A stretch of DNA of 64,000 nucleotides, from NCBI RefSeq assembly GCF_905237065.1, contig NC_059444.1, positions 51,942,644 through 52,006,643 of the forward strand, given 5' to 3'. The notes beneath the pieces are model-generated. The model saw only the letters and a program-made list of their open reading frames with translations, had not been told where the DNA came from and ran no database searches. This DNA is from Salmo salar. Its lineage: Eukaryota. The translations under genes were made by a program, and so were the position numbers. This document shows positions 18,412-44,053 of this stretch, in pieces; the first letter of the stretch is position 1; every line of letters begins with the position of its first letter.

Positions 18412-18534
18412 TCACTGGCCCGGGCTCTGAGATAGAGCTCCCAGAAGGCCGTTGGCCGTGCTGAAGAGGTTGATGGGAGAAGAGCCGTCTGTGATCAGGG
18501 TGGACTTCAAACCCAGAGACTGGAGCAGCTTGAC
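18412..18534 (-). CDS. mvp: MVP exon 16 (last coding; [40 protein letters not shown]), stop TGA at 18414-18412
   Basis: Matches the human MVP C-terminus ([32 protein letters not shown]...). Acceptor is cccccag|GTCAAG. The 3' UTR continues to lower coordinates; a possible AATAAA lies on the minus strand near 17853-17858. Confidence 0.9.
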
Positions 18535-18880
18535 CTGGGGGAGGGTAGGGAAGGACAGAAAGTCGAGAGAGATGATACATTTAATATGATAATTGTTCCT
18601 TTCCGTTATAACTGATTGAATAAGATCCCGTGTTCCAGTTCCAATATCTTATACATCCTGATAACGTCTTGTCACGCTAATATAGCTCATTTATTTAAAT
18701 TGAGATTGGGTGGGAGAAAGACAGACCTGCTCTGTGAAACGTTACAGTAAAGTAAAACATTACAGAACGATTCTGACCTGAGCAAGAGCTTAAGGATTCT
18801 CCAGGTGCCATTTTTATTCAGACAAAATGGATTGTGTAGCACCAATATGACGGTGTTACGGTATGTCAGGAGTTATATAC

Positions 18881-19069
18881 CTGTAGCTCGGGGCCGGCTC
18901 TGGCCATCTCCTGCAGGGTGTTGGCGCCGATGCTGTCCACCAGCTGTTTAAAGCGTTTGCTCTCTATCTCAGCCAGCTTCTGCCGTTTCTCCACTTCCAA
19001 ACGATCCATCTCTGACTTATAGTTTAGCTCTTGCTCCCTCGCCTTGGACATACGGTTCAGCTCGCCCTC
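18881..19069 (-). CDS. mvp: MVP exon 15 (EGELNRMSKAREQELNYKSEMDRLEVEKRQKLAEIESKRFKQLVDSIGANTLQEMARAGPELQ)
   Basis: Coiled-coil C-terminal region, compare human ...[26 protein letters not shown]. Acceptor tgtgtgtgcag|GAGGGC, donor CTACAG|gtatat. 189 nt, phase 0. Confidence 0.88.
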
Positions 19070-19171
19070 CTGCACACACAATTACAGGTCAGCTACACAT
19101 AGTATGTGAACCTTTCAGCATTACACAATGTAGAACACATTCACACACACACACACACACACACACACGGT

Positions 19172-19345
19172 TAGAGCGTTGGACTAGTAACCGAAAGGTT
19201 GCAAGTTCAAATCCCTGAGCTGACAAGGTACAAATCTGTCGTTCTGCCCCTGAACAGGCAGTTAACCCACTGTTCCTAGGCCGTCATTGAAAATAAGAAG
19301 TAGTTCTTAACTGACTTGCCTAGTTAAATAAAGGTAAAAAATAAA
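19172..19345 (+). mobile_element. tRNA-derived SINE (SmaI/FokI-type) fragment, in an mvp intron
   Basis: ggttagagcgttggactagtaaccgaaaggttgcaagttcaaatccctgagctgacaaggtacaaatctgtcgttctgcccctgaacaggcagttaaccc...cttgcctagttaaataaaggt. The reverse-oriented full copy is at 60555-60760. Confidence 0.75.
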
Positions 19346-19424
19346 CACAGGTCAGCAATTACAGGTGAACTACTGGTTGTTTCAGAATTACACAATGTAG
19401 AACACATTGCAAGAGGATACGTAC

Positions 19425-40329: not shown

Positions 40330-40525
40330 CTGCTGGATCTCCTCTCCGGGGTAGAGGGGGAAAGGGTCTTGGGTGAGCCGGATCTCCAGGTCAGCATGGC
40401 GAAGCTTGGCCTGTCCCGATTGGTCGAAGAGCACCTGTCTGTTGTCGTCGCGAGCGACGGGGTTGAGCACCACACAGTAGTGGCGAGGAGGGACCATGGT
40501 CATTCGCGTGGGGGAGAACAGCACT
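40330..40525 (-). CDS. mvp: MVP exon 2 (R)[65 protein letters not shown]
   Basis: Compare human [66 protein letters not shown]. Acceptor cttcccag|AGTGCTG, donor CAGCAG|gtactg. 196 nt. Confidence 0.92.
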
Positions 40526-40569
40526 CTGGGAAGGAGGGGACAATACAGTCACCTAATGACTGACACACT

Positions 40570-43450
40570 AATCTACACCGATACTGTACATCAAATTGTA
40601 TTTGTTACATGCACCCGAATACAACAGGTGTAGGTAGACCTTACAGTGAAATGCTTACTTACAGCCCTTAACCAACAATGTTTTAACCTCCCTGGGCAAG
40701 GTGGGACGTTTGCTATAACTTCAATTTCTCAAACATATTACTATTTTACACCATTTTAAAGACAAGACTCTCGTTAATCTAACCACATTGTCCGATTTCA
40801 AAAAGGCTTTACAGCGAAAGCAAAACATTAGATTATGTCAGGAGAGTACCCTGCCAAAAATAATCACACAGCCATTTTCAAAGCAAGCATATGTCACAAA
40901 AACTAAAACCACAGCTAAATGCAGCACTAACCTTTGATGATCTTCATCAGATGACACTCCTAGGACATTATGTTATACAATACATGCATGTTTCGTTCAA
41001 TCAAGTTCATATTTATATCAAAAAACAGCTTTTTACATTAGCATGTGATGTTCAGAACTAGCATACCCACCGCAAACTTCCGGTGAATTTACTAAATTAC
41101 TCACGATTAACGTTCACAAAATACATAACAATTATTTTAAGAATTATAGATACAGAACTCCTTTATGCAATCGCGGTGTCAGATTTTAAAATAGCTTTTC
41201 GGCGAAAGCACATTTTGCAATATTCTGAGTACATAGCCCGGCCATCACGGCTAGCTAATTTGACACCCACCAAGTTTGGCCCTCACCAAACTCAGATTTA
41301 CTATAAGAAAAATTGGATTACCTTTGCTGTTCTTCGTCAGAATCCACTCCCAGGACTTCTACTTCAACAACAAATGTTGTTTTGGTTCCAAATAAACCTT
41401 AGTTATATTCAAATACCTCCGTTTTGTTCGTGCGTTCAGGTCAGTATCCGAAGGGTGACGCGCGAGCGCATTTCGTGACAAAATTCAGAATATTCCATTA
41501 CCGTACTTCGAAGCATGTCAAACGCTGTTTAAAATAAATTTTTATGCTATTTTTCTCGTAAAATAGCGATAATATTCCAACCGGGCGACGTTGTATTCAT
41601 TCAAAGGCTGAAAGAAAAAAATAGAGAATTCTCATGAATGCGCAGTGTCACTGTTCCCAGCCTGACCACTCACAAAATCTCCTGCTGTTTTTCGCCCAGA
41701 GACAGGAGAGACGTCATTCCACTTTCTAGCGCCTTCTGAGAGCCAATGGAAGCCTTAGAAAATGTCACGTTACAGCAGAGATGCTGTATTTTCGATAGAG
41801 ATGCCACAGAAGGAGAACAAATTGTCAGACAAGGCACTTCCTGTATGGAATCTTCTCAGGTTTTGGCCTGCCATAGGAGTTCTGTTATACTCACAGACAC
41901 CATTCAAACAGTTTTAGAAACTTTAGAGTGTTTTCTATACAAATCTACTAATTATATGCATATTCTCGTTTCTGGGCAAGAGTAGTAACCAGTTTAAAAT
42001 CGGGTACGTTTTTTATCCGGCCGTGCAAATACTGCCCCCTAGCCCCAACAGGTTTGTTAAGAAAAAAAAAATAGATTAGTAAAAAAATTACAAATAATTA
42101 AAGAGCAGCAGTAAAATAACAGTAGCGAGGCTATATACAGGGGGTACCGGTACAGAGTCAATGTGCGGGGGCACCGGTATTGAGGTAATATGTACATGTA
42201 GGTAGAGTTAAAGTGACTATGCATAGATAATAAACAGAGTAGCAGCAGCGGAAAAGGGGAGGATGCAAATAGTCTGGGAAGCCATTTGATTAGCTGTTCA
42301 GGAGTCTTATGGCTTGGGGGTAGAAGCTGTTTAGAAGCCTCTTGGACCTAGACTTGGCACTCCGGTACCGCTTCCCGTGTGGTAGCAGAGAGAACAGTTT
42401 ATGACTAGGGTGGCTGGAGTCTGACAATTTTTAGGGCCTTCCTCTGACACCGCATGGTTTAGAGGTCCTGGATGGCAGGAAGCTTGGCCCCAGTGATGTA
42501 CTGGGCGGTACGCACTATCCTCTGTAGTGCCTTGCGGTCGGAGGCCAAGCAGTTGCTATACCAGGTAGTGATGCAATCAGTCAGGATGCTCTTGATGGTG
42601 CAGCTGTAGAACTTAGGGATCTGAGGACCCATGCCAAATCTTTTCAGTCTCCTAAGGGGGAATAGGCTTTGTTGTGCCCTCTTCATGACTCTTGGTGTGT
42701 TTGGACCTTGACAGTTTGTTGGTGATGTGGACACCAAGGAATTTGAAGCTCTCAACCTGCTCCACTACAGCCCCATCGATGAGAATGGGGGTGTGCTCGG
42801 GCCTCCTTTTCCTGTAGTCCACAATCATCTCCTTTGTCTTGATCACATTGAGGGAGAGGTTGTTATCCTGGCACTACATGGCCAGGTCTCTGACCTCCTC
42901 CCTCTAGGCTGTCTATCGTTGTCGGTGATCAGGCTTACCACTGTTGTGTCATCGGCAAACTTAATGACGGTGATGGAGTCGTGCCTGGCCATGCAGTCAT
43001 GAGTGAACAGGGAGTAAAGGAGAGGCCCCCGTGTTGAGGATCAGCGTGGCAGATGTGTTGTTACCTGCCCTTACCACCTGGGGGCGGCACATCGGGAAGT
43101 CCAGGATCCAGTTACAGAGGGAGGTGTTTAGTCCCAGGATCCTTAGCTTAGTGATGAGCTTTGAGGGTACTATGGTGTTGAACGCTGAGCTGTAGTCAAT
43201 GAATAGCATTCTCACATAGGTCTTCCTTTTGCCCAAGTGTGAAAGGGCAGTGTGGAGTGCAATAAAGATTGCATCATCTGTGGACCTGTTGGGGCAGTAT
43301 GCAAATTGGAGTGAGTCTTGGGTTTCTGGGATAATGGTGTTGATGTGAGCCATGACCTGCCTTTCAAAGCACTTCATGACTACAGACGCGAGTACTACGG
43401 GTTGGTAGTCATTTAGGCAGGTTACCTTAGTGTTCTTGGGCACAGGGACT
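40570..43450 (-). mobile_element. 5'-truncated L2-like LINE copy 2 (RT ORFs 42459..42755, 42652..42846, 42997..43443), with an X-family insertion in its 3' UTR
   Basis: RT motifs [58 protein letters not shown]...FPLRRLKRFGMGPQI.KFYSCTIKSILTDCITTWYSNCLASDRKALQRIV match the 10986..11585 RT with frameshifts. The 3' tail pieces 40570-40690 and 42055-42240 are collinear with 10560-10860, but are split by 40690-42054. Confidence 0.8.
40690..42054 (-). mobile_element. X-family repeat copy (longest, about 1.36 kb), inserted into the LINE 3' UTR
   Basis: The reverse complement starts ctgttggggctagggggcagtatttgcacggccggataaaaaacgtaccc...cagaaacgagaatatgcatataattagtagatttgtatagaaaacactctaaagtttctaaaactgtttgaatggtgtctgtgagtataacagaactcctatggcagg... 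and is collinear with 34625-35618, 38485-39476, 61655-62610 and 63235-64000. Confidence 0.75.
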
Positions 43451-43916
43451 ATGGTGGTCTGCTTGAAACATGTGTGTATTACACACTCAGTCAGGGACAG
43501 GTTGAAAATGTCAGTGAAGACATTTGCCAGTTGGTCAACGCCTGTTCGGAGTACACGTCCTGGTAATCCGTCTGGCCCTGCGGCCTTGTGAATGTTGACC
43601 TGTTTAAAGGTCTTTCATCAGCTACAGAGAGCGTGATCACAGAGTCGTCCAGAACTAAGTGTAAATGTGTTTGTACAAGGCATATGTTGACTAACCTAAA
43701 CCTGTAAAGAAACGCCTAAAAGGTGCCATTAAAAACGTGATATTTGGTAACGTTCGAAGTGTGCTGTCAAATAGTGTGTGATGCTGTAACCACAGAGAGA
43801 AACGGCTTGTTTGGCATCAGGAGGCTTAGAAGAAACTGAAAACAACCAATCGCACTAGTAATTAGGAAACTACATGCAGACCTTATCAGATAAACACACA
43901 CAAACACACTCCTCAC

Positions 43917-44053
43917 CTCTCATTGTCCTGTCTGATGTAGGTGAGTGGTCCTATCTCCACACGGGCAATATTGGTGTTTTGGTCAAGGACATGGATGTAG
44001 TGGTGGGGCGGAATACGGATGATTGACTCATCCACCAGCCCCATAAAGTCCAT
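43917..44053 (-). CDS. mvp: MVP exon 1 (first coding) [45 protein letters not shown](R)
   Basis: Compare human [42 protein letters not shown]. The start was placed at the ATG with the strong Kozak context (ggcaggATGG, 44053-44051). Alternative in-frame ATGs lie at 44086 (first after an upstream in-frame TAA, weak context, immediately after a ttccag acceptor-like site) and at 44044. Donor GAGAG|gtgagg at 43917. Confidence 0.8.

Follow-up and report, generated by a model that had tools for sequence, protein, structure and literature searches.

The 64,000-nt stretch of the Atlantic salmon (Salmo salar) genome analyzed here (the window; assembly GCF_905237065.1, contig NC_059444.1, positions 51,942,644 to 52,006,643) carries on its minus strand what is, judged by sequence, a complete and intact mvp gene predicted to encode the major vault protein (MVP), the subunit building the shell of the vault ribonucleoprotein particle. 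Almost certainly, this is an ordinary mvp gene that was enlarged by stepwise accumulation of transposable elements (TEs) in its introns, the insertions having no indicated function for the gene. RefSeq already lists this gene with an identical 16-exon structure, and the analysis adds little beyond confirming the existing annotation. Its by-product is a dated series of insertions in one gene, including events after the salmonid whole-genome duplication, Salmo-specific events, and S. salar-specific events.

Structure of the mvp gene and its predicted product

A human MVP sequence served as the tblastn probe, its role being limited to locating exons, and gave co-linear minus-strand matches in the window from 44035 to 18439 with 52-91% identity per segment and MVP-like open frames around the matches throughout. 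A search for AG/GT-bounded segments with the exon lengths listed in a preliminary description of the stretch, in which frame was ignored, matched 15 of the 16 exons with one to two candidates each, while exon 7 was placed by reading the letters (...ctcccag/GGTGAG...CAGGAG/gtgagg; 30010-29885, 126 nt). Joined computationally, the 16 minus-strand exons (Table 1) gave 2601 nt corresponding to 866 codons plus TGA with no internal in-frame stop, and GT-AG borders were present at 15 of 15 introns (30 of 30 splice sites canonical). The 16 coding exons of the preliminary description with their lengths, phases, strand, and ends (44053 and 18412) were thus correct, and its claim of GT-AG at every junction was confirmed. 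An alternative exon 4 of equal length (31394-31263) was rejected as it introduces a stop codon, and the gene model is therefore constrained rather than arbitrary.

Translation from the ATG at 44086 yielded 877 amino acids that matched residue for residue XP_014047827.2 (A0A1S3R7L6_SALSA), annotated as “major vault protein isoform X1 [Salmo salar],” the sole discrepancy from the earlier model being its start 11 codons later. In a phmmer search against PDB, residues 7-859/861 of the product aligned with residues 3-851/853 of solved MVP chains (E = 0, 1262-1276 bits), the human and rat MVP structures (11dr, 4v60/4hl8, and 9z4w) being co-linear with salmon residues 7-861 (E = 0, ~1265-1276 bits). 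The domain order of vault repeats, shoulder, and cap helix was the same as in human and rat MVP, and Pfam identified Vault (1.3e-62, four stretches), Vault_2, Vault_3, Vault_4, and MVP_shoulder (1.1e-50), all above their gathering scores. Together with the RefSeq record, the full-length match and the complete set of vault and shoulder domains upheld the earlier identification of a complete mvp. In contrast to human and rat MVP, the acidic insert that follows exon 7 is longer in the salmon protein and a loop in the shoulder region is shorter, and the salmon protein is without the proline-rich C-terminal tail of human MVP.

The ATG at 44086 is in frame, 33 nt 5' of the ATG at 44053, and preceded by a polypyrimidine tract and AG (ccgttccag/ATGACA). 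Because this splice acceptor lies directly 5' of the ATG, an upstream non-coding exon of mvp may be predicted. Protein alignment showed that the NCBI salmonid models start 11 codons further 5' (MTFKNGG...), the best Kozak context was that of the ATG at 44053 (aggATGg), and neither the 866-aa product nor an 863-aa variant had an exact match on record. The start codon of mvp is probably the ATG at 44086, 11 codons upstream of the one first described; the intact frame of the 866-codon product stood, and the RefSeq start extends it to 877 residues.

The closest database proteins were salmonid MVPs with 94-98% identity, followed by pike MVP with 91%, and the salmonid sequences formed two groups, in line with the pair of ohnologs derived from the salmonid genome duplication. 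Based on this sequence grouping, the window mvp is assigned as one of the two ohnologs left by that event. The gene was compared with its orthologs in charr (Salvelinus alpinus) and brown trout (Salmo trutta), with the other Salvelinus ohnolog (ohnolog B), and with pike (Esox lucius). All four loci contained 16 exons with lengths equal to those of the window, and GT-AG junctions at matching sites were confirmed in the charr ortholog, ohnolog B, and pike. The gene span was 25.6 kb in S. salar vs. 10.4 kb in pike.

Transposable elements of the mvp introns and their history

The presence or absence of each insertion across brown trout, charr, pike, and the charr ohnolog was used for dating, and Pfam scans for TE domains were carried out on stop-to-stop open stretches joined by X. 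The 3391-bp intron 1 contains a block with a reverse transcriptase of a long interspersed nuclear element (LINE), for which open stretches at 43614-42462 (minus strand) matched RVT_1 (1.1e-14), the only match being to the non-LTR-type (LTR, long terminal repeat) RVT_1. The block replaces ~195 bp of ohnolog B and is absent from both ohnolog B and pike. It is split by a 1.38-kb secondary insertion, present in S. trutta and not in S. alpinus, in agreement with the LINE with a secondary insertion reported earlier. A second copy of the LINE family with 83-85% identity was identified at 10580-11701 of the window and includes a 222-aa open stretch (minus strand, 10989-11654; RVT_1, 4e-15).

Insertions resembling short interspersed nuclear elements (SINEs) were found in introns 12 and 14, consistent with the intronic SINEs of the preliminary description. 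The intron 14 copy ends in AAAAAATAAA and occurs in S. trutta but not in S. alpinus; it is itself 5'-truncated, and a B-box-like GTTCAAATCC is readable in it. Related copies were located at 60556-60730 (87% identical) and at the intron 12 position 20154-20246 (78%).

Intron 8 (7257 bp) harbors two Tc1 elements, element A being inserted in an inverted repeat of the Sleeping-Beauty-like element B, and the nested Tc1 cluster described earlier was therefore borne out. Fragments of element B at 26408-25607 matched HTH_SB (2.3e-11) and DDE_3 (2.8e-06, with a score just below the cut-off), and the block 25329-28171 is missing from ohnolog B. Element A displayed fragmentary transposase matches to HTH_SB (2.8e-24) and HTH_Tnp_Tc3_2 (2.6e-14), inverted repeats of ~210 bp that are 93% complementary (26757-26966 vs. 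27924-28132), and the ends TA/CAGTGGGG...CCCCACTG/TA, whereas the site in S. alpinus is empty and shows one TA only; S. trutta carries the element. On either side of element A lies sequence (including ...gaagtttacatacacttaggttggagtcattaaaac...) of the Sleeping-Beauty-like terminal inverted repeat of element B. The HTH_SB, HTH_Tnp_Tc3_2, and DDE_3 domains, ~210-bp terminal inverted repeats, and TA duplication are shared with salmonid Tc1/mariner elements of the Sleeping Beauty type, but both intron 8 copies are internally deleted and frameshifted, i.e., inactive remnants. In a further ~1.3-kb block of the intron, a Tc1-like DDE fragment (24070-23873) was read by eye and gave no Pfam match.

The 8490-bp intron 3 contains a degraded Ty3/gypsy element that has the target-site duplication CTGGT on both sides (at 31466-31470 and at 39560-39564), with a full 5' LTR (31471-31841; termini TG...CA) and a 3' LTR reduced to 82 bp. 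Pfam placed the pol domains on the plus strand at 32.3-34.6 kb in the order RVT_1, RT_RNaseH_2/RT_RNaseH, Integrase_H2C2, and rve, and gag-like sequence with a truncated gag lies on the same strand, while the scan of open stretches found no protease match in the element. The order of reverse transcriptase, RNase H, and integrase, 370-bp TG...CA LTRs, and a 5-bp target duplication are common to Ty3/gypsy elements; in contrast to typical members, the intron 3 element is without a protease, has a truncated gag, and has a broken open reading frame. Multiple frameshifts and stops and an integrase C-terminus truncated at ~34630 leave it short of complete autonomous coding capacity. The S. alpinus counterpart is a single element with 370-bp LTRs (94.6% identical), TG..CA ends, and the CTGGT duplication.

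In the window, the larger part of the element forms a tandem duplication with 2.02 copies of a 3858-bp unit that joins the 82-bp LTR end to the gypsy interior and an unclassified 1-kb repeat. The gypsy tandem array of the preliminary description was accordingly present, its length being 7.8 kb rather than 7.7 kb. The 82-bp LTR segment occurs three times, the outermost being 96% identical to the other two. Three LTR-derived segments around two interiors are likewise seen in LTR-interior-LTR-interior-LTR tandems that arise by unequal recombination, but in comparison with typical cases the 3' LTR has been cut to 82 bp by the 1-kb repeat, so that recombination would have only 82 bp to act on. S. 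trutta and S. alpinus each have one copy of the unit, and the duplication was found only in the window. The LTR pair and target duplication, identified both in charr and in the window, spoke against a simple segmental duplication without LTR involvement, and that reading was rejected. Further copies of the 1-kb repeat are located at 38488-39485, 40981-42054 (inverted), ~61660-62010, and 63236-63570.

The comparison with S. trutta, S. alpinus, ohnolog B, and Esox restricted Tc1 element A, the intron 14 SINE, and the 1-kb repeat insertions to Salmo and suggests the following order of events. Between the genome duplication and the Salmo/Salvelinus split, the LINE entered intron 1, the gypsy-type LTR element intron 3, and a Tc1 element intron 8. 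In the Salmo lineage, a second Tc1 inserted into the first and the 1-kb repeat into the LINE, a member of the 1-kb family replaced the gypsy 3' end, and the SINE reached intron 14. In S. salar only, the gypsy unit was duplicated, presumably when the 82-bp LTR remnant recombined unequally with its counterpart in the intact LTR, a mechanism proposed because three LTR-derived segments flank two interiors. The size gain relative to pike is explained by stepwise TE build-up in three introns. The series displays textbook hallmarks such as target duplications, an empty site, and LTR-mediated tandem duplication, and could be used as a worked example or to provide markers for salmonid phylogeny and structural-variant genotyping, the S. 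salar-specific near-identical duplication of the LTR unit being a mildly interesting detail.

In total, the TE blocks span 14.3 kb, rising to 15.7 kb when the partly characterized 1.3-kb block is counted, and make up 56-61% of the 25.6 kb gene; the earlier statement that the gene lies within majority TE DNA was hence correct. Repeats account for 58-60% of the Atlantic salmon genome, with Tc1-mariner as the largest class at 12.89% (PMC8127823). Because 56-61% in the gene compares with 58-60% genome-wide, the TE load of mvp is that of the genome average and the locus is typical rather than exceptional. All TE blocks lie in introns, as claimed previously, and no exon or core splice signal of mvp was hit by insertions. 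Such avoidance may be explained by selection removing disruptive insertions in a constrained gene.

Several observations weigh against the reading of an ordinary mvp gene enlarged by intronic TEs. The predicted exon boundaries are based on homology, canonical splice sites, and agreement with the RefSeq protein model; the ATG at 44086 (877 aa) and the second ATG at 44053 (866 aa) are both candidate starts; and the intron 1 LINE is of the non-LTR type by its RVT_1 match, its earlier label as L2 being putative. Neither ARAGORN nor an Rfam E-value scan detected a tRNA-like SINE head, the Rfam scan of introns 12-14 giving only chance matches on a CA repeat. The ratio of nonsynonymous to synonymous substitutions (dN/dS; Nei-Gojobori) was 0.26 vs. 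charr, a value based on only ~50 substitutions, compared to 0.17 vs. ohnolog B and 0.08 vs. pike. Finally, the two tandem copies in intron 3 are near-identical in the one S. salar assembly, with 2 mismatches and 4 gap columns over 3858 bp. This near identity, along with the single copy in each of S. trutta and S. alpinus, is also what an assembly artefact would produce, but the junctions are exactly those predicted if the 82-bp remnant and the intact LTR had crossed over unequally, and the few differences between the copies include indels. An artefact is thus the less likely origin of the array, although it retains some weight.

Selection and splicing of the window copy

As dN/dS was 0.08-0.26, the comparisons indicate that the window mvp is under purifying selection at the sequence level. 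Where charr, ohnolog B, and pike agree, the window product has 12 specific replacements (residues 86, 231, 285, 293, 396, 425, 448, 517, 781, 803, 812, and 824 in the 877-aa numbering), among them E396V inside the otherwise conserved IEYVPP motif. By a like count, charr has 8 and ohnolog B 12 and therefore, the 12 window-specific replacements are not unusual. That the window copy is a decaying ohnolog or incipient pseudogene with introns swollen by relaxed selection could be read from these replacements, from its intron total of 23.0 kb vs. 15.1 kb in ohnolog B and 7.8 kb in pike, and from a dN/dS vs. charr above the value vs. pike. Against this stand the uninterrupted frame with 30 of 30 canonical splice sites, a dN/dS well under 1 in all comparisons, the equal number of lineage-specific changes in ohnolog B (with 8 in charr), and the two protein-coding isoforms modeled by RefSeq, which together make decay scarcely credible. 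The intact open reading frame and dN/dS led to rejection of the pseudogene reading, and the locus is best described as an ordinary, intact mvp gene under purifying selection.

RefSeq isoform X2 (876 aa) is without Q361, the first codon of exon 8, and uses the acceptor at 29612 rather than 29615 within a tandem NAGNAG motif (29612-29617). Isoforms differing by this one residue have likewise been annotated in S. trutta and several Salvelinus species, with the 876-aa form on record for trout and charr, and isoform X2 is a NAGNAG wobble, not a product of TE-driven splicing. Small repeats also lie close to splice sites. The duplication noted earlier beside the exon 8 acceptor was present, but with a period of 43 bp instead of 50 bp and ~2.5 copies at 29621-29741. 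Likewise, the poly-C reported by the exon 12 donor was present and is, in gene sense, a G run starting ~28 nt past the donor. A 40-bp unit is repeated 3.2 times at 22517-22642, and CA and GA microsatellites also occur in the mvp region.

The preliminary description proposed the locus as a special place for TE-driven alternative splicing or exonisation. Proximity gives this idea its appeal, as 60 bp separate the gypsy LTR edge from the exon 4 acceptor, 66 bp separate the LINE 3' end from the exon 2 acceptor, and the intron 14 SINE-like insertion lies between the exon 14 donor (79 bp away) and the exon 15 acceptor (100 bp away), while the pyrimidine-rich unit abuts the exon 8 acceptor and the LINE and Tc1 element B are in sense orientation. 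The sole annotated salmon variant is nevertheless the 3-nt NAGNAG shift at exon 8, a shift annotated as well for trout and charr, whose intron 7 lengths differ, and no obvious TE-derived insert was seen by eye in the aligned salmonid protein models. The proposal consequently found no support, and alternative splicing or exonisation of mvp driven by these elements is improbable. Slimmer still is the chance that the tandem duplication is real, very recent, and maybe polymorphic and that, with the Salmo insertions near splice sites, it makes the splicing or expression of mvp measurably different from that in brown trout or of the other ohnolog.

Table 1. Features of the mvp locus in window coordinates, and intron totals of the compared genes.
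Feature	Coordinates	Strand	Remarks
mvp coding exon 1	43917..44086	-	44053-43917 (137 nt) from the ATG first described; RefSeq ATG 44086; third ATG 44044
mvp coding exon 2	40330..40525	-	196 nt
mvp coding exon 3	39901..40024	-	124 nt
mvp coding exon 4	31279..31410	-	132 nt
mvp coding exon 5	31044..31138	-	95 nt
mvp coding exon 6	30203..30439	-	237 nt
mvp coding exon 7	29885..30010	-	126 nt
mvp coding exon 8	29409..29615	-	207 nt; tandem NAGNAG acceptor tag/CAG/GAG
mvp coding exon 9	21916..22151	-	236 nt
mvp coding exon 10	21475..21672	-	198 nt
mvp coding exon 11	21164..21308	-	145 nt
mvp coding exon 12	20762..20973	-	212 nt
mvp coding exon 13	19920..20036	-	117 nt
mvp coding exon 14	19425..19551	-	127 nt
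mvp coding exon 15	18881..19069	-	189 nt
mvp coding exon 16	18412..18534	-	123 nt including TGA
Non-LTR (LINE) element	40592..43716	-, sense to mvp	RVT_1; intron 1
Secondary insertion in LINE	40687..42065	-	1.38 kb; copy of the 1-kb repeat family
Degraded Ty3/gypsy LTR element	31471..39559	+, antisense to mvp	Pfam domains, LTR, target-site duplication; intron 3
Tandem duplication	31760..39559	+	7.8 kb; 2.02 copies of 3858-bp unit
Unclassified ~1-kb interspersed repeat	34629..35624	+	Replaces gypsy 3' end and most of 3' LTR
Pyrimidine-rich 43-bp unit (gene sense)	29621..29741	-	~2.5 copies; abuts exon 8 acceptor and forms its polypyrimidine tract
Tc1 element B, Sleeping-Beauty-like	25329..28171	-, sense to mvp	Encloses nested element A; intron 8
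Tc1 element A	26757..28132	+	1376 bp; inserted in inverted repeat of element B
Further ~1.3-kb block	23517..24845	-	Intron 8; absent from ohnolog B
Older diverged SINE-like copy	20154..20246	+	Intron 12; ~120 bp upstream of exon 13
SINE-like insertion	19169..19345	+, antisense to mvp	177 bp; A-rich tail; intron 14
Intron total, S. salar (window)			23.0 kb
Intron total, S. trutta			~18.8 kb
Intron total, S. alpinus			15.9 kb
Intron total, ohnolog B			15.1 kb
Intron total, Esox lucius			7.8 kb

Other features of the window

An Rfam scan of the whole window at gathering scores gave no match, including no vault RNA, snoRNA, or miRNA. Upstream of mvp, a nearly intact Pao/BEL-type LTR retrotransposon occupies 47200-54118 (plus strand), with LTRs (47200-47558 and 53760-54118) that are 98.3% identical and an uninterrupted 1614-aa frame containing DUF1759, RVT_1, Peptidase_A17, and Integrase_H2C2, after which comes a 187-aa frame that carries DUF5641. 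From these sequence features, the element looks young and may have been recently active. Tc1-like transposase N-terminal fragments were identified at 54735-55208 (minus strand; HTH_Tnp_Tc3_2, 2.7e-12) and, read by eye only, at 12584-12880 (plus strand).

Positions 1-400 of the window consist of a long compound microsatellite of (CA)n and a repeated ACGCACGCACGC-type unit that creates artificial open frames on both strands. Three overlapping GC-rich and proline-rich open frames without a Pfam match lie at 60007-60448 (minus strand) and may be an exon of a neighboring gene or a compositional artefact. Two open stretches at 3004-4415 (minus strand) correspond to the two halves of a CD225 (dispanin) domain. 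They read like PRRT2, a neighbor of MVP in human 16p11.2, and their location near mvp suggests conserved synteny.

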